From the NCBI GenBank assembly GCA_028281825.1, contig JANQJC010000078.1:1602-65601 (forward strand): a stretch of DNA of 64,000 nt. Reading direction: 5' to 3'. How positions within the stretch are numbered: the stretch's first letter is position 1; every line of letters begins with the position of its first letter. The notes beneath the pieces are model-generated. The model ran no database searches and was not told the origin of the DNA. It saw nothing but the letters and a program-made list of their open reading frames with translations. Origin of the DNA: Flavobacteriales bacterium. GTDB taxonomy: Bacteria > Bacteroidota > Bacteroidia > JANQJC01. Made by a program: the position numbers and the translations under genes. Shown piece after piece: positions 6,088 through 20,313 of the stretch.

Positions 6088-6958
6088 GAATAGGTAATGC
6101 TAGACCGTTTTTGTCAAAGCGGAAAGGTCGCCATTTCCCGTCAAACAGGTTGTAAACATACTCAAACCCTACGGATTTCAAAAGGTCAGCAGCAAATTCA
6201 AATTCAGCTACTATCTCAGAGGGATGGTGAGCGTCTGAGTTGATAGTTACTGGTATGTTGCGTTTATATAGCTCTTTCAACACCCATTGACTAGGGTAGG
6301 TCTCGTTGGCTTTCTTTTTGTATAGGCCACGGGTGTTAACCTCAACAATTGCTCGGCTGTGCTTAATGAGGTCAAGGGTAATAATCATCTCATTGTGATA
6401 CCACTCTTCGCTTTCTGAGAAATACTTATTCCCAGCGTTTTGCATTTTTATCTTGTCGATATGCCCAATAACATCTGGGCATTCTTCTAAAATCATTTGG
6501 CGGGTAAGCTCATAATATCGGCTTACTGCGAGTTCAACATTTCCACCGAAAATTTCTTCCAAGCCCTCTTCAAAAACCTTACCTGTGCTATCAATTTCCC
6601 ATGGTCTACCGTCTTCCAAAGCATCTACAAAGTGAATGGAGCCTATGGTATAATCCAGATTGGCATTGCGAATAAAAAGGCTTTTTGGTCCCATTACTCC
6701 TGGTACGTAATCTACTTCTAAACCACAATAAATTTGGATATGGTTTTTCCAGGCGTCCTTTAATTGATTAACTTCCCTCACGTAGGAGCGCAGATTATCA
6801 GCTTCCATGGCCCATGGAATGTTGTTAAAGGGAGTTGGGGCATGGGATGAAAAACCATAGGCTGCGAGACCTAAGTCAACGGCCTCTTCCGCATATACGT
6901 AAGCCTGATCGCTTCCGTCGCAGAACTTACAATGGCTATGATAGTTTGTCCAAGACAT
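6080..6958 (-). CDS. PHP-family phosphatase (HisJ/HisK histidinol-phosphatase-like)
   Basis: Motifs NYHSHC..CDG, FSSHAP, GLEVD, IGHIDK, EVNT and NSDAH. Confidence 0.88.
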   Translation of the reverse strand: MSWTNYHSHCKFCDGSDQAYVYAEEAVDLGLAAYGFSSHAPTPFNNIPWAMEADNLRSYVREVNQLKDAWKNHIQIYCGLEVDYVPGVMGPKSLFIRNANLDYTIGSIHFVDALEDGRPWEIDSTGKVFEEGLEEIFGGNVELAVSRYYELTRQMILEECPDVIGHIDKIKMQNAGNKYFSESEEWYHNEMIITLDLIKHSRAIVEVNTRGLYKKKANETYPSQWVLKELYKRNIPVTINSDAHHPSEIVAEFEFAADLLKSVGFEYVYNLFDGKWRPFRFDKNGLALPIRA

Positions 6959-11408: not shown

Positions 11409-13813
11409 AAGTTATCGGGGTTTTCGGTTGGTTCTGTCTTTACTTCAAGATTATCTAACTCAATGTCTTCTTCTTCATCAAATATCTCAAGATAAGGTTC
11501 TTTAAACGCTTTAGTGGTTAAGATTTTTTCAAGAGACAGTATCAGTGAAGGCAAAATTATAAGATTGGAGAACATGGCTACAAAAAGTGTGATGGCGGTT
11601 AATAGCCCTAGTGCTACTGTGCCGCCAAAAGTGGACATAGTGAAAATGAAAAAGCCACAGAATAATACTATTGAGGTGTATATCATGCTCACGCCTACTT
11701 CTTTTAGGGCCAAGATAACCGCTGTTCTGATGTTCCAGCTGTAGCTCTTCAATTCCTGCCGATACTTGGCCAAAAAGTGAATGGTATCATCCACAGAAAT
11801 ACCAAAAGCGATACTAAACACCAAGATGGTTGAGGTTTTGATTGGGATGCCAAAATAACCCATCAGCGCTGCGGTGATTATTAATGGAATGATGTTTGGC
11901 AAGAGCGAAACAGCCACCATCCTGAAGGAGGAGAACATGAAGGCCATTATTATAGAAATGATAACTATTGCCAAGGCCAAACTCACTACTAAGTTTTTAA
12001 TGAGGTAGTCGTTGCTTTTTAAGAAGACCACACTGGTGCCCGTAAGAGTCACATCGTAATCTTCGGGAGAGAAAATGGAGTCTATTTTTGGAGCGATATC
12101 TGCTTTGAGGTCCCTGAGTTCGTTAGTCCCGATATCTTCTATGTAAGAGCTTACCCGGGTGATTTGCTTATTGCTATCCAGAAATGAACGCAGCAGGTTG
12201 TCGTTACCATCACCGCTGGGCACATAATCAAGGATAAAAGACCTTTCGCGGCTGGATGGCAAGTCATACTTGCTGGTTTTCCCATAGTAGAAAGCCTGGC
12301 GGGAATACTTCAATACTTCAACAATGGATATAGGCCTAGAGAATTGTGGGTATTCAGCCAATAAGCCTTGCAGTTTGTCTATCCTTTTTATGGTGGCTGT
12401 GCTGATAACCTTGCCTTTCTTTTTGGTGTCAATTTCTATCTCAAAAGGCATTACCCCATTAAAGTGTTTCTCAAAAAATTTGAGGTCTAAATACAGAGGG
12501 TCATTTTTTGGCAGGTCGTCTACGATATTACCTGTTGATACCATTTTGGAAATACCTATGCCGCCGAATACCAGCAGTACAACAGTAGAAACATATACCC
12601 ACGGCCTGTATGAAGTAACGATGAGGACAAGTTTGTTAACGATGTTTTGGATGAACTTTCTATCCAGGTGTTTCACGTGTTTCTCAGACGGAGGAGCCAA
12701 CATGCTGAAAATGATAGGTATCAGCAGAATAGACAGCACAAATACTGAAAGTATACTTAGTGATGCTATGACGCCAAACTCTTTGACAATCTGACTTTCA
12801 ATCAGTATAAAAGCGGCAAAACCAGAGGCTGTAGTTACATTGGTAAGCAAAATGGCATTACCCACTTTTTTAATGCTCTTGGTGAGAGCCCTGGCCTGTC
12901 CACCATGGCGTTTAATCTCAGACTGGTATTTATTGAGGAAAAAGATACAATTGGGGATGCCAATGATGATGATTAAAGGAGGGATGAGACCATTAAGCAC
13001 CGTTAGCTTATAACCCAGCATGCCAATTAGGCCAAAACACCAGGTAACGCCGAAAGCCACCACCAGCATGGAGAACATTACCACTTTAAATGAGCGGAAG
13101 AAGAAATAAAGGATGATGGCAGTAGCCAGTGCTGCAAAGGCAATAAATTCCACCAATTCACCTGACACCAGCATAGATATCTTACTGCGGATAAAAGGCA
13201 GCCCAGAGTAGTGAAGGTCAAGACCATACTTTTCACTGTATAGATTGCCTATCTCCTGTATTTTCACAACGAGATGGTTGCGTTTTTTGGTGTCCAGAAC
13301 TTCATCACTCACGGTGATGCCCATAAGGGTCACGTCATTCTTTTCATTGAAAAGGACTCCTTCATAAAAAGGCAGCCCATAGATGGCGTTTTTAATACTA
13401 TCCAACTCCGATTGGGTGGTCGGCTTTGAGTCCAGTAGCCTCACGAATTGGAATTTTTTAAGGCTGTCATCACGAGTGAGGTTGTACATCCTCGCGACTG
13501 AAACAACTTCGTCTACACCGTCAAGCTGGAGGAACTCTTCCCCCAAGTCATACCAGGCATTGAATTTTTCGAGTTGGAAAAGATTACTGTCTTGCAAGCC
13601 AATCATCAGCACGTTGCCGTCTTCACCAAAGCGGTCTATAAACTGCTCATATTCAATGTAAGTGCTATCTGTGGCAGGCAGCATTTGCGCAAAATCGTAG
13701 CGAATTTGAACCCTGCGGGCATTCCATGCCATCAACACTGTTATAGTGCCAATAACTGCAAGAATTGCAAATCTTTTGCGAAGGATAAAGCTGGCTATTT
13801 TTTCCCAGATCAA
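11405..13813 (-). CDS. MMPL/RND family transporter
   Basis: Two repeats of periplasmic domain plus TM bundle; GISVDDTIH motif. Confidence 0.88.
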
Positions 13814-13903
13814 AACGTTGGTTTTATAGCTTTTTCAGGCTGTTTACCTGCCAATTAATAAGCAAGCGAAAGTAGAAACAATAATCGTAATAAGAAACCC
13901 AAC

Positions 13904-13935
13904 TTTGATTTAAAAGTTCGTACCTGTTACATTTG
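13904..13935 (+). promoter_or_regulatory. Bacteroidota sigma-A promoter
   Basis: TTTG (13904-13907), 20-nt spacer, TACATTTG (13928-13935), upstream of the ATG at 13979. Confidence 0.75.
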
Positions 13936-13978
13936 GCACAAAATTTGGCTAGGCATAGTCAAATGAATAGACTTAGAC

Positions 13979-15148: not shown

Positions 15149-15309
15149 TTACCGTTAACAATTTTTAAGATTCAGCTTAAATAGTTGAAGAGCAAGGCGA
15201 TTCGATAAAAAACACCGTATTGTTTGTGGAATTGTAGGACTGCGTGCATCTACCTTTTGTAATGCAATCGAAAAATTCATAAATTAGTCCTACTAAAAAC
15301 ACTACGATT

Positions 15310-16908: not shown

Positions 16909-16936
16909 ACGTTATCTCAACCCTAACGTTGAAAAG

Positions 16937-16967
16937 AAGGGGCGGCTTGATTTTCAAGCCGCCCCTT
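16937..16967. terminator. Bidirectional intrinsic terminator hairpin
   Basis: Perfect 14-bp stem AAGGGGCGGCTTGA/TCAAGCCGCCCCTT between convergent genes. Confidence 0.85.
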
Positions 16968-16970
16968 TGG

Positions 16971-17255: not shown

Positions 17256-17267
17256 TGTGTTGTAATT

Positions 17268-17417
17268 TTTGGTTTGCTACCAAATATAGTGCTTCTTACA
17301 CCCCCTCAATGTTAGTCCTTCGAAATAGAGGTTTTTTACTTTTCCCTCTAGGAGAAAGTGGCAATACTGAATGAGGTGAGACAGAATTTGTGGGGGTTTT
17401 TGTTTTACAACACAAAA
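17268..17417. repeat. ~150-bp duplicated upstream element, copy 1
   Basis: Aligns by eye at roughly 80-85% with 17729-17879; contains TATATTTG (minus strand, 17281-17288) and an inverted-repeat-bounded core at 17298-17399. Confidence 0.92.
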
Positions 17418-17420
17418 AAT

Positions 17421-17717
17421 CTACTCTTCTTCTTCAAATTCCAAAACGTATACGAAGGTGTTATCAGCGCATGTCATGTTTTCAAGTTCCCAGCCTTCTT
17501 TGGCTAATTCATTCAGTTTTTTAGTCACCTGGTTAATGCCTTCTTCATAACTGTTGTCCAACTTTATTTTTTCCATCCCACCTTCTGCATAGCAGATGAA
17601 ATAATGGCGGTTGGTCCAATTATGGATAAGAGTCATGTACTTGGGGTTATCCGCAAATCCGCTGGCAGTGAAAAGAAAAAGACCTAAAAAGAATGTAGCT
17701 GTGAGTAATTTTTTCAT
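17421..17717 (-). CDS. Small secreted protein, DUF4177-like (paralog B); start refined to ATG 17717
   Basis: MKKLLTATFFLGLF signal peptide; LNELAKEGWEL motif. Confidence 0.7.
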   Translation of the reverse strand: MKKLLTATFFLGLFLFTASGFADNPKYMTLIHNWTNRHYFICYAEGGMEKIKLDNSYEEGINQVTKKLNELAKEGWELENMTCADNTFVYVLEFEEEE

Positions 17718-17728
17718 GAGATTGTGAA

Positions 17729-17879
17729 TTTGGTTTGATACCAAATATAGTACTTCTTACACCCCCTCAATGTTAGACGTTCGAAATAAAGCTTTCTGCT
17801 GTTCCCCTCGAGGGGAACAGTGGAGATACTGAATGTGGATAGACAGAATTTGCGGGGGTGTTTGTCTTACAGCACAAAA
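17729..17879. repeat. ~150-bp duplicated upstream element, copy 2
   Basis: Contains TATATTTG (minus strand, 17742-17749), 12-bp inverted repeats at 17759-17770/17850-17861 and a perfect 22-bp palindrome at 17799-17820. Confidence 0.92.
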
Positions 17880-20260
17880 GTAAGCGTGAGTTTCGCTGCG
17901 ACGTTGTCCTTCAGTTCAGGTTTTTGGTAGCCACCATAGCGGTAGAATACCCCTGCGCCTAATCCACTGAAGTTAACTTTCAAGATGTTGTCAATACGCA
18001 AGCCCGTTTCAAAAAAGCCATGCTGGAATGAGCGCACAGGCACATTATGGTGCAAATTGGGTTGCCCCAGCCAACCAAAGCCAATGTTGTTTACCAGGAC
18101 AAATGAAGGTTCCAGCTTTTTGGTTTTAAAGAGCAAGGTGCCGAAATTGTGGGTGTGGTATAGCGTGATGTATTTATTGGCAATGAACTCATTAATACCC
18201 ATAGTCTCAAAGGTGTTCTGGCTTGCAGCTGGAAGTCGGTCCTGGTAATCGCCCCTGCCTTTGTATAGCTTGCTGTAAGGTACGTCATCACTTACCCATC
18301 CTGCTGTAACTTGCCAGTTTTGTGTGCCCAGGTTCCTGATAATAAAGCGGTATTCCAGCTTGGCGTCTACTTTATAGTATTTATAAGTACCATTCCATAG
18401 ATTATTCAACCCCTGGCGGGCGGTAATCCAAATCACGGGGAACTTGGTACCCACTGAGTAGTCAACATCTTTGGTGCGCACTATTTTTTCCCTGAAGGCA
18501 TACCGCAGCCCAACAAATGCTTCTGTAAAATTGAATTGATTGACACCTGCAAAAACCCCATTGGCATCTACGCCATAGAGATAATTGTCGGTGATGCCTA
18601 TGGCTTGTTCCGCTAGCCCTACTTGTAGTTTTAGATATTTCAACATCCGCCATTGGATAGAAAAGCACCACTCTTGCAGGTCGTCTCTGCGGCCTAGGTA
18701 GTATCTGCGGTAAAGCTCTTGTGTGGTAGGTTTCCTGTCTTGAAGTAACACAGGGCGGCCAGCCTCAGGTATTTCTTTTTGGTATTCTGCCATTAAGGCA
18801 AGTTCGGAGTTGCGATGAAGGTTGAGCCTTACATCTCCGCCGTACTTAGCGGCTTTATCCTTAAAACCATAGCCCCACCATCCACCGAGAACAAATACCC
18901 GACTTAACTTATCATTGGTGTGCGCCCCCAAGCCTAATCTGAGGGTTTCAAAGCTATTAACAGATAGGAGGCGTTTCAAATCGATATCCAATGGACCAAT
19001 GGGATACCTGCCTGTGCTGAGGGCCGTGAGTACCTTTACCTTTCTATCCAGATTGGCTTCTTTACCTATGCTATCTACAACTTGATAGGTAGTCTTGTCT
19101 TTTTCGGACAGCTCATTGTACCTGTATTGATTCCAAAACTCCTCTGATTTTGTTGTTGCATCGGGCATTATTTCGAGTTCAACCTGGCTGAACTGGTTAT
19201 TCTTTAACCTGGGGTTTATCCTTATATCCCGGAGATATGCCCTGCCGATACCTTTTACGTGATAATTGTTAACATTAATCGTGTTCAGCACCATATCGGT
19301 ATTTAATTGGACTGGAAACCATTGGCCCTCTATCTTCTTATATTTCTGCTGGATATTGAGAGAGACATTATCCGCGTCTACTGCCTTGGCGGTCACATTT
19401 TGTACTGCCCAGCCATCCGTCGTGATGTATAACAAACCTTCCAGCCCATCAAAGTTCTTACCTTTTTTTGGACGGTATGAAATTACAAAAATGCTGTCAG
19501 CACCTGAATAGATGGTGTCTTCGAGCAAAAAGAAATACTTATTGGTTGAGCCACCGCTAATGGGGTTGAGGTAGTTTTTATCCCCCAAAGTGAAATAATC
19601 ATTGTAAAATGAAAAGGACTGGAATTCGGTGGCCATTACGCTAAAGGTGGGGTCTTTTAAACCTGAAACGCGGGTCGCCAATACTTTTTCATTGCTTTTA
19701 CCTGATTTGTAAATCCTTTCGGAAATGGTTTCAGAGAGAAACAAATGCTGCTTTTGAAAAAACTGCACCATCCGCATATCCGAGCTGTCTTGCTGGGGCA
19801 TATCTTCGGGTTTATCAGCGGTGAAATACATCTTATTGTATGAAGTATAGCTGAATGAGGGTAATTGTTCTGGATTGTTCTTTTTACGGTTGGTAGTGGC
19901 GTTTTTAATCATCCGATGAGCAGGGTTTTCACCCGGGAGCACAACCACATCCTGCATTTCGACACCTTCTGATGACAGGCGTACAGTTAATGGTTTTTCT
20001 TTAAGTGCATTACCTTCTAGTTTGAGTTTTTTATAACCCACATAACTAAAGGTGAGTGAGTTGACAGGCTCATCAGGTTGAACCGTAAACCGTCCATCAA
20101 TATCAGAAGTGGTGCCAACGGGCTTTTCATTAATAAGTATATTAACGAAGGGTAGCACCTGCCCATTAACACTGTCAATAACGGTTCCGCTAATTTGAGT
20201 GGATTGACAAAAAGCCCACGCGGGTATCAACAGCAAAAAGAGGCCTAGGGCTTTTTTCAT
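17867..20260 (-). CDS. Outer-membrane protein with carboxypeptidase-like regulatory domain and DUF5686-like barrel; start refined to ATG 20260
   Basis: Signal peptide; GTTSDIDGRF...SYVGY N-terminal domain; beta-barrel C-terminus. TATATTTG lies just upstream of ATG 20260. Confidence 0.8.
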   Translation of the reverse strand: MKKALGLFLLLIPAWAFCQSTQISGTVIDSVNGQVLPFVNILINEKPVGTTSDIDGRFTVQPDEPVNSLTFSYVGYKKLKLEGNALKEKPLTVRLSSEGVEMQDVVVLPGENPAHRMIKNATTNRKKNNPEQLPSFSYTSYNKMYFTADKPEDMPQQDSSDMRMVQFFQKQHLFLSETISERIYKSGKSNEKVLATRVSGLKDPTFSVMATEFQSFSFYNDYFTLGDKNYLNPISGGSTNKYFFLLEDTIYSGADSIFVISYRPKKGKNFDGLEGLLYITTDGWAVQNVTAKAVDADNVSLNIQQKYKKIEGQWFPVQLNTDMVLNTINVNNYHVKGIGRAYLRDIRINPRLKNNQFSQVELEIMPDATTKSEEFWNQYRYNELSEKDKTTYQVVDSIGKEANLDRKVKVLTALSTGRYPIGPLDIDLKRLLSVNSFETLRLGLGAHTNDKLSRVFVLGGWWGYGFKDKAAKYGGDVRLNLHRNSELALMAEYQKEIPEAGRPVLLQDRKPTTQELYRRYYLGRRDDLQEWCFSIQWRMLKYLKLQVGLAEQAIGITDNYLYGVDANGVFAGVNQFNFTEAFVGLRYAFREKIVRTKDVDYSVGTKFPVIWITARQGLNNLWNGTYKYYKVDAKLEYRFIIRNLGTQNWQVTAGWVSDDVPYSKLYKGRGDYQDRLPAASQNTFETMGINEFIANKYITLYHTHNFGTLLFKTKKLEPSFVLVNNIGFGWLGQPNLHHNVPVRSFQHGFFETGLRIDNILKVNFSGLGAGVFYRYGGYQKPELKDNVAAKLTLTFVL

Positions 20261-20313
20261 ACGGACAAATATAGATTGAATAATTACTACCTTAGAGCTA
20301 CAAACCCTCATTT

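Follow-up and report, generated by a model that had tools for sequence, protein, structure and literature searches.

The window analyzed here spans 64,000 nt of DNA from an uncultured, coral-associated member of the Bacteroidota and derives from a coral metagenome. It contains a palindromic non-coding element twice, in copies of 103 and 102 nt, each upstream of a gene for a small secreted protein. The element is a module lying between the stop codon of a gene for a DUF5686 outer-membrane barrel protein and the Bacteroidota-type promoter of fast-evolving small secreted genes, and it is probably a local regulatory structure that is neither mobile nor widespread. Comparison with relatives supports selection on its architecture, that is, on the outer arms, a central stem and the lengths of the segments, since arms, hairpin and lengths have persisted despite turnover of the spacers between them. 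The presence of two copies seems to go back to tandem repetition of a unit made of the barrel 3' end, the element, the promoter and a small gene, the intergenic part of which would have been copied, or homogenized by gene conversion, far later than the genes diverged. Decay is seen in copy 1; copy 2, the one adjoining the barrel gene, is intact.

Alignment using MAFFT divides the direct repeat that contains the two copies into blocks at 17268-17356 and 17729-17817 (84% identity over 89 nt) and at 17357-17417 and 17819-17879 (85% over 61 nt), separated by a 1-nt indel; BLAST reports the two repeat copies at 81.7% over 175 nt. Overall, the non-coding copies at 17268-17417 and 17729-17879, upstream of the small genes P2 and P1, respectively, are 82-85% identical, in agreement with an earlier note on this DNA, which had described two ~150-bp non-coding copies, 80-85% alike, upstream of small secreted genes. 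An 18-mer taken from the repeat occurs exactly twice in the window, where 0.06 occurrences are expected by chance. All genes, arms, boxes and repeats of this locus for which a strand is implied below lie on the minus strand, referred to as the gene strand. Copy 2 (17759-17861, 103 nt from arm to arm) is the better preserved, with an outer stem that is perfect over 8 bp (one mismatch when extended to 12 positions) and a central stem of 9 bp that pairs throughout. Its left arm reads ACACCCCC on the gene strand (17854-17861) and extends to 17850 as ACACCCCCGCAA, its central hairpin or palindrome is CTGTTCCCC-TCGA-GGGGAACAG (17799-17820), and its right arm block is CATTGAGGGGGTGT (17759-17772). 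Copy 1 (17298-17399, 102 nt) is degraded, with an arm mismatch (AAACCCCC) and an imperfect central hairpin, CTTTCTCC-TAGA-GGGAAAAG (17339-17358), the eight stem positions of which comprise six Watson-Crick pairs, one G.U and one C.A. The outer inverted repeat can be written for both copies as ACACCCCCTCAA...TTG(C/T)GGGGGT(G/T)T, and the arms ACACCCCC(N)CAA and TTG(N)GGGGGTGT constitute terminal inverted repeats of 8-12 bp. The earlier note had described this repeat as 12 bp long and as bounding a core of 102-103 bp; the repeat is present but perfect over only 8 bp in copy 2 and mismatched in copy 1, and the length given is that of the whole element including its arms, the inner part measuring 78-79 nt. 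In folding calculations, copy 2 reaches -34.5 kcal/mol in the sense (z -4.1) and -45.2 kcal/mol in the antisense direction (z -5.7).

The left boundary of copy 2 of the repeat is formed by the final codons of the barrel gene and its stop, TTTTGTGCTGTAA, encoding F V L * (17867-17879), and the same 3' end is kept as a non-coding relic, TTTTTTGTGTTGTAA (17405-17419), that begins 1 nt past the P1 stop and marks the duplication junction. As had been proposed, the arrangement is that of a tandem duplication: the repeat unit begins 13 nt ahead of the stop codon of the barrel gene, whose relic is kept at the junctions both after P1 in the window and after the orthologue of P2 in a related locus (L001).

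Relatives of the locus were collected by a search with the barrel protein and their syntenic contigs were compared (L001, L007-L011, L004 and others). The barrel orthologues form an identity series of 84, 82, 76, 68, 68 and 52%, and the nearest GTDB genome, a Bacteroidia metagenome-assembled genome, encodes a barrel protein that is 51% identical. Some of these contigs repeat the same sequence, the window being identical to L002 and L003, and L007 to L008. In L007/L008 (82%) and L009 (76%), the barrel gene is followed by one small gene each and the element is present as a single copy, which BLAST failed to detect and which was recognized by its architecture. The L009 element reads ACACCCCC...CTTTCCCCC-TCGA-GGGGGAAAG...CATTGTGGGGGTGT, followed after 11 nt by TATATTTA; the L007 element reads ACGCCCTCC...CTTTCCCCC-TCAA-GGGGGAAAG...CATTGTGGGAGTGT, followed after 12 nt by TATATTTA. 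Their sense folding z-scores are -3.1 (L007) and -2.3 to -3.0 (L009). All four copies, two from the window and one each from L007 and L009, measure 41 nt from the first base of the left arm to the central stem, have 8-9 bp in that stem and 4 nt in its loop, and measure 40-41 nt from there to the right-arm end, so that the arm-to-arm length across lineages is 102-104 nt and that of the central hairpin segment 20-22 nt. Within this frame, the window type and the L007/L009 type match at chance level in the left (6-10 of 33 positions) and right spacers (4-6 of 18), and at 5-8 of 8 positions in the arms and 16-18 of 22 in the right-most 22 nt. Two pairs of the central stem are changed on both sides with pairing kept between copy 2 and L007/L009 (T-A to G-C and C-G to T-A, turning CTTTCCCCC/GGGGGAAAG into CTGTTCCCC/GGGGAACAG), and the arm substitutions of L007 pair as T-A in a shifted register. 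The compensatory hairpin difference that the earlier note had seen between the two window copies does exist, but the stem of copy 1 is imperfect and the difference can be interpreted only with such outgroups.

A covariance model built from L007 and L009 only was run on the window with shortened calibration. Its top match is copy 2, at full length and equally on both strands as expected of a palindrome (37.6 bits, E 2.6e-7), and copy 1 ranks third, at full length on the gene strand (19.9 bits, E 0.014); these are the only credible matches in the 64 kb. A weak match at 11764-11856 on the minus strand, inside an MMPL transporter gene (18.9 bits, rough E 0.026), is probably due to chance. The model has no matches in L001, L010, L011 and L013-L015. 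A sequence-independent scan for the architecture found only this locus in the window and the related loci, and one of 20 shuffled windows gave a match. The check for covariation thus yields two compensated stem pairs and recovery of both window copies by a model made from relatives only, within a sample of three lineages. Several other features considered for the element were set aside. An inversion of the window element relative to L007/L009 is not seen, as the spacers are unrelated in either orientation; the spacers do not form one long hairpin, with only residual palindromy in the window, chance level in L007/L009 and no significant spacer comparison. No conserved small open reading frame (ORF) lies inside the element, as one of 20 codons in L009 has a frameshift in L007 and no counterpart in the window, and the motifs of a promoter of the extracytoplasmic function type (GGAAC...CGTC) are not conserved and are wrongly spaced.

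The identity of the two window copies carries a different message from their architecture. Good intergenic conservation is the rule in this clade, and it is the small proteins that evolve unusually fast. Control intergenic regions are 80% identical between L007 and L009; in comparisons of the window with L007 and L001, they reach 80-86% upstream of a gene of the type IX secretion system (T9SS) and 85-91% in the divergent region beside the MMPL gene, while the four-fold synonymous sites of the barrel gene are saturated among these genomes (36-43% identity). Between L007 and L009, identity is 83% in the intergenic region that contains the element, 74% over the final 600 nt of the barrel gene and 66% in the small gene, and at the protein level the small protein retains 43% identity versus 77% for the barrel. 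These controls remove the force of the argument that non-coding DNA better conserved than the proteins it precedes must be under structural selection. As a separate observation, the intergenic identity of 80-91% (window 13814-13978 and 15149-15309 against L001, L007 and L009) exceeds that of coding DNA (~75% nucleotide identity), which could reflect dense regulatory content or a bias in the evolution of synonymous sites. The real anomaly is the opposite of that reported by the earlier note: the spacers of the element have turned over while control intergenic DNA stays. Since the spacers are free to change, the 82-85% identity of the window copies points to recent copying or gene conversion, and their likeness is best explained by such more recent events acting on the module, in addition to ordinary intergenic constraint; it is no evidence of structural selection since the ancient P1/P2 split. 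The spacer differences between the two copies are not compensatory either. Structural selection is supported for the arms, the central stem and the lengths as seen through relatives and not for the whole 150 bp. Two element-less intergenic regions in L001 are likewise 85% identical to each other, which is consistent with concerted evolution. The turnover of the spacers also implies that the window type and the L007/L009 type are not simple orthologues; they could be old paralogous types, one of which overwrote the other by conversion, or one type could have been replaced by the other.

The barrel protein tree, ((window,(L007,L001)),L009),(L010,L011), places L001 among carriers of the element, which indicates that the element was present in the common ancestor of the four small-gene lineages and has been lost in L001. 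Here, the barrel gene (84%) is followed by a P2 orthologue, 85% identical to the P2 of the window, and then by a third paralogue, P3. In both intergenic regions of L001, the relic GTGTT(A/G)TAA and the TATATTTGG box are retained at a distance of 7 nt, where the window has 116-117 nt, and what L001 is without corresponds exactly to window positions 17290-17866. Copy 2 is flanked by the direct repeat TGTAAGA (17755-17761, with a 7/7 partner at 17865-17871) and copy 1 by TGTAAGA (17294-17300) and TGTAAAA (17403-17409), a 6/7 match. The loss in L001 was probably a deletion between these repeats, and a single deletion between 17865-17871 and 17294-17300 would give the first intergenic region of L001. 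The repeats overlap the right arm and the stop-codon region; in L007, only a 6-mer, CGAAAT, is found at unequal offsets, and nothing clear is present in L009. The 7-nt spacer of L001 (L001:5961-5967), TTCCCCC, equals the left half of the central hairpin (TTCCCCC-TCGA) and may be a deletion remnant or a coincidence. Across lineages, the sequence that flanks the element on its left, GACA(C)AAA(C), is homologous. The stop-to-element distance in L007, 49 nt, exceeds those in L009 (30 nt) and the window (5 nt) because of a ~19-nt tandem duplication just upstream of the element (L007:6712-6745, CACTAAAACACAAAGG / CACTAAAGAACACGAAATT). In the outgroups L010 and L011 (68%) and L004 (51%), other genes follow the barrel and the element is absent; a candidate remnant in L010 was rejected, as its same-strand similarity is not significant (z 0.4). 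The intergenic region after the barrel in L011 (L011:7371-7538) is rich in repeats of its own, CACAGAG/CACGGAG and their complements CTCTGTG/CTCCGTG, which are unrelated to the element.

Beyond this locus, the element was not encountered. A 20-mer scan of GTDB genomes, a search for the architecture pattern in JGI metagenomes and viral contigs, and blastn against plasmids and phages gave no matches. Among the contigs of four source runs, the element is found at 80% likeness only at its own locus, and regular-expression, architecture and covariance scans of the window and all loci revealed no further copy. No similar motif lies upstream of any other gene in ~170 kb. Rfam has no match at the gathering threshold over the window, and at E up to 10 only scattered hits far below the gathering scores appear. 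The element is locus-specific and vertically inherited in a small clade of coral-associated Bacteroidota: the copies whose count had been proposed amount to two adjacent ones in the window and single ones at the same locus in L007 and L009.

At its right edge, the element merges with a putative promoter. The Bacteroidota sigma-A consensus consists of a -7 box, TAnnTTTG (at -12 to -5), and a -33 TTTG, and leaders are typically short (24-32 nt) and lack a Shine-Dalgarno sequence (PMC6847099, PMC9723704). Each copy of the element stops 9 nt upstream of TATATTTG, itself about 20-22 nt before the ATG, which represents the putative -7 box of P1 (17742-17749, leader ~20 nt) and of P2 (17281-17288). 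For P2, the -33 TTG at 17307-17309 lies inside the right arm block of copy 1; in copy 2, 18 nt separate the right-arm TTG (17768-17770) from the -7 box downstream of it, which puts this TTG at ~-33 of the predicted start. The distance from TTG to box is 18 nt in the window and 20-21 nt in L009/L007. The promoter pattern of a TAnnTTTG box, a TTG ~19 nt upstream and a leader of ~20-30 nt is thus found in the window, given the predicted start site, and the A-rich leaders of the locus have no Shine-Dalgarno sequence. The TAnnTTTG box is kept in all six homologous intergenic regions and also in the distant locus L015, and the conserved block on the right-hand side reads CTA.CATTG.GGGGGTGT, with its TTG 18-21 nt upstream of a TATATTT(G/A) box. 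A leader box of the form TATATTT(G/A)...AAACCAAA...TTACAAC(AC)ATG precedes every family member (window 17718-17749 and 17256-17288; L001:5961-6000 and 6320-6363; L015:630-670, where it reads TAAGTTTGGCAATACAAACAATAAACCAAATAATACATG). Within this box, the window and L001 have a small inverted repeat, TTTGGT-N5-ACCAAA, that straddles the predicted transcription start.

Based on these observations, the element is tentatively read as an intercistronic stem-loop in the 3' untranslated region (UTR) that separates the barrel transcript from the small-gene promoter, which is possible rather than established. Given that the terminator scan called nothing from the barrel stop to the element, transcription would continue into the element as a 3' UTR; copy 2 would then be transcribed in the 3' UTR of the barrel and copy 1 in that of P1. 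In the RNA, an outer stem would form around a stable GC-rich hairpin, and this stem-loop would end, pause, protect, stabilize or process the upstream transcript and insulate it from the small-gene promoter, for which the right arm would double as the -33 region. At L015, the gap between two tandem family members contains an ordinary terminator and, after it, a TAAGTTTG box with an A-rich leader of similar kind; the element thus fills the place where other lineages have a terminator and a promoter. A number of points weigh against this assignment. No RNA run was found to contain the locus, and read-through, start sites and RNA folding are deduced from the DNA. The central hairpin has no T-run on either strand and so is no canonical terminator. 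The covariation amounts to 2-3 events in three independent lineages, and the counts of G.U versus C.A are balanced, without strand bias, so that the constraint could act on DNA. Exact segment lengths are more typical of protein-DNA phasing than of RNA stems, the element is dispensable given that L001 does without it, and the full turnover of the spacers between the window and L007, where control intergenic DNA is 80-85% identical, requires an extra assumption.

The same lengths and the lack of strand preference would suit a DNA operator, in which the central 20-22-bp palindrome (centered at ~-72 to -76) and half-sites in the arms bind a transcription factor for the small-gene promoter, and in which the fixed spacing would reflect helical phasing or DNA looping. 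The strictness of the 41/22/41 arrangement despite spacer turnover, the overlap of the right arm with the -33 region, a palindrome that is perfect including its TCGA center in copy 2 and L009, and a gene for an AsnC/Lrp-type regulator a few kb away in L001 and L007 speak for such a site. It is nevertheless considered unlikely, because perfect 9-bp complementarity and double-sided changes are more typical of a base-paired stem, the arms are not self-palindromic and are complementary to each other over ~87 nt, which is more than a simple dimer site needs, the motif occurs nowhere else in ~170 kb as a sign of a regulon, and the L001 promoters are without the element.

An equally unlikely account, which dispenses with a dedicated function altogether, attributes the copies to recent gene conversion or concerted promoter evolution in a conserved intergenic background, with palindromy incidental or left over. 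The controls at 80-91% despite saturated four-fold sites agree with it, as do the likeness of the two element-less regions in L001, the non-compensatory spacer differences and decay of copy 1 in the window, and the loss of the element in L001. What it leaves unexplained are the arms, the compensated stem and the exact lengths amid randomized spacers, as well as the recovery of the window copies by a model from other species (E~1e-7).

Slightly less credible is an origin as a domesticated or relic element resembling miniature inverted-repeat transposable elements (MITEs), possibly inserted site-specifically between the stop and the -7 box and supplying the -33 TTG; the window and L007/L009 would carry different subfamilies, and L001 would be the empty site. 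The 8-12-bp terminal inverted repeats, the uniform 102-104 nt around interiors that are unrelated between lineages, the TGTAAGA flanks with 7/7 and 6/7 matches, a reconstructed empty site equal to the 7-nt stop-to-box spacing of L001, and presence or absence among close relatives are all as expected of it, and the likeness of the elements (L007 to L009, unlike the window) conflicts with the barrel tree. However, the element is found at this locus only, with two copies in 64 kb, in no other context among the contigs of the four metagenome runs at a likeness of at least 80%, and in none of the GTDB, JGI metagenome, viral contig, plasmid and phage collections; no transposase lies within ~6 kb at any locus, as judged from Pfam-annotated neighbors. 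Homology of the left flank across lineages favors vertical descent, as does the nesting of L001 among carriers, and the retention of arms and hairpin despite saturated synonymous sites needs selection whatever the origin. A recent insertion of this kind, suggested by the 7-nt sites of L001, was downgraded for the same reason, as the element is present in L007 and L009 and L001 falls inside the carrier clade.

Two further proposals invoke DNA exchange. It is very improbable that the element represents a new kind of cis element with locked geometry that serves a rapidly diversifying array of secreted genes, namely a structured hotspot of recombination or gene conversion (through single-stranded DNA or a cruciform) within a non-integron cassette system of Bacteroidota that promotes the gain, loss and reshuffling of promoter-plus-gene units downstream of the barrel, a proposal that, if true, would explain the differing gene complements and the homogenized intergenic modules of each genome. 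Still less can be said for a site-specific recombination site, attC-like or part of an invertible segment, that shuffles or switches the small-gene array: although an imperfect palindrome of attC-like size lies between small ORFs whose array content varies (P1+P2, P2+P3 or a single gene), GTCTAAC/GTTAGAC in copy 2 fits the attC core consensus, and, as in Bacteroides invertons, a segment close to a promoter is bordered by inverted repeats, several features argue against it. The heptamer resembling the core is placed at the wrong end, is imperfect in copy 1 and is missing from L007/L009. The genes are paralogues that have promoters of their own and a barrel relic at each junction, which denotes unequal crossing-over rather than the insertion of cassettes. 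The element stands before the genes and none follows the last one, no integrase or invertase is present in the neighborhood, the -7 box lies outside the inverted repeats, and all assemblies show one orientation with a negative cross-lineage inversion test. The recombination site put forward by the earlier note has no direct support, with no recombinase nearby, no attC core sites, no inversion and no extra copies found.

The genes around the element are arranged as follows. The barrel gene (17867-20311) is an 814-aa ORF encoding a predicted outer-membrane barrel protein with a CarboxypepD_reg-like domain and DUF5686 (Pfam matches PF18939, E 9e-42, and PF13715, E 1e-16). P1 (17421-17717, 98 aa) and its paralogue P2 (16971-17255, 94 aa) encode small secreted proteins with signal peptides that share 30% amino-acid identity, which bears out the weak likeness noted before. 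The only hairpin called in the terminator scan, a canonical GC-rich one with T-runs at 16936-16968, follows the last small gene and is common to the small-gene array and a convergent T9SS gene; T9SS sorting domains were found by Pfam in neighboring genes. Neither tRNAs nor tandem-repeat arrays were found in the window. Just upstream of the element, the last codons of the barrel gene, TTTTGTGT, can pair with ACACAAAA past the stop in an inverted repeat that encloses the stop codon, over 8 bp in L007 (6684-6722) and L009 (4542-4582) and over 5-6 bp in the window (17858-17879), where TTTGT within 17867-17879 can pair with ACAAA just downstream.

With 20 representatives among 1.84 billion protein clusters (E 0.001 or better), the small secreted proteins make up a tiny family. 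Arrays comprise P1+P2 in the window, P2+P3 in L001 (6001-6654) and one gene each in L007 (6893-7198) and L009 (4732-5022), and the paralogues are 29-52% identical, compared to 77-85% for the adjacent barrel protein. In a word-indexed protein database, P1 has no relatives and P2 has one. Distant members in L012, L013 and L014 occur in other contexts without the element, L012 being the one distant family match in the JGI metagenomes. P1 matches DUF4177 weakly and below threshold. The AlphaFold model of P2 is beta-beta-beta-alpha-beta-beta with a predicted local distance difference test score of ~80, and among known folds it has a weak GFRP-like match (template modeling score ~0.5) and none at E 0.001 or better. 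In L013 (3001-5430), a distant family member lies directly upstream of a gene with a Thioredox_DsbH domain, and in L011 (7539-9689) the barrel is followed by a homologous-looking thioredoxin-domain gene, an arrangement that hints at a former neighborhood of barrel, small gene and thioredoxin gene.

If the structural constraint is real, the element would be an uncatalogued cis-acting element from a barely sampled lineage of coral-associated Bacteroidota, and the locus would offer a compact test case for how Bacteroidota, with their unusual promoters and without Shine-Dalgarno sequences, keep neighboring transcription units apart or link them. The restricted distribution of the element limits its wider importance. 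A more general lesson is that non-coding DNA outlasting a neighboring protein is weak evidence here, as intergenic DNA is well kept and the proteins are fast.

Among known systems, ERIC, REP/BIME and Correia elements and bacterial MITEs resemble the element in size (~100-130 nt), in terminal inverted repeats around an internal hairpin, in their location in transcribed intergenic gaps near promoters or 3' ends, in their presence or absence between relatives, and in that they can stabilize or process mRNA or supply promoter elements. Unlike the element, with 1-2 copies at one locus, they are multi-copy and dispersed; moreover, the element shares its architecture and not its sequence between lineages, and no similar sequence was found in the searched collections. 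Integron attC sites (e.g. Vibrio VCRs) are also imperfect palindromes between small ORFs that conserve structure and vary in sequence, with copies in one genome far more alike than the genes they separate and with variable array content. Here, however, no RYYYAAC/GTTRRRY core pair is present at the ends, the termini being ACACCCCC/GGGGGTGT, and GTCTAAC is seen only in copy 2, near the 3' end of the gene strand, with GACTAAC in copy 1, ACCTATC in L009 and ATCTAGC in L007; there is no nearby integrase, the element lies upstream of paralogous ORFs with their own promoters, and the junction relic denotes tandem duplication. Bacteroides invertons share the Bacteroidota host, the short inverted repeats around a promoter-proximal segment of ~100-200 bp and the position upstream of genes for surface or secreted proteins, but in the present case the -7 box lies 9-12 nt beyond the right arm, neither strand of the element contains a TAnnTTTG, inversion would barely alter the -33, and no recombinase is nearby. 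A single orientation is found in the window, L002, L003 and L007/L008, and the source contigs show no strand-switch joints, as far as assemblies reveal. Likeness to a Bacteroidota sigma-A promoter, with TATATTT(G/A) 20-25 nt before each ATG and TTG within the right arm, accounts for the right-hand ~22 nt only and not for the left arm, the central hairpin or the fixed lengths. With terminators and with stabilizer stem-loops of 3' UTRs or intercistronic regions, the element has in common a stable GC hairpin directly after a stop and before the next promoter; it differs from them in having no U-tract and in adding a long-range outer stem and a fixed geometry. The element represents a new case, restricted to one lineage, of a cis element that is structured, palindromic and intergenic.

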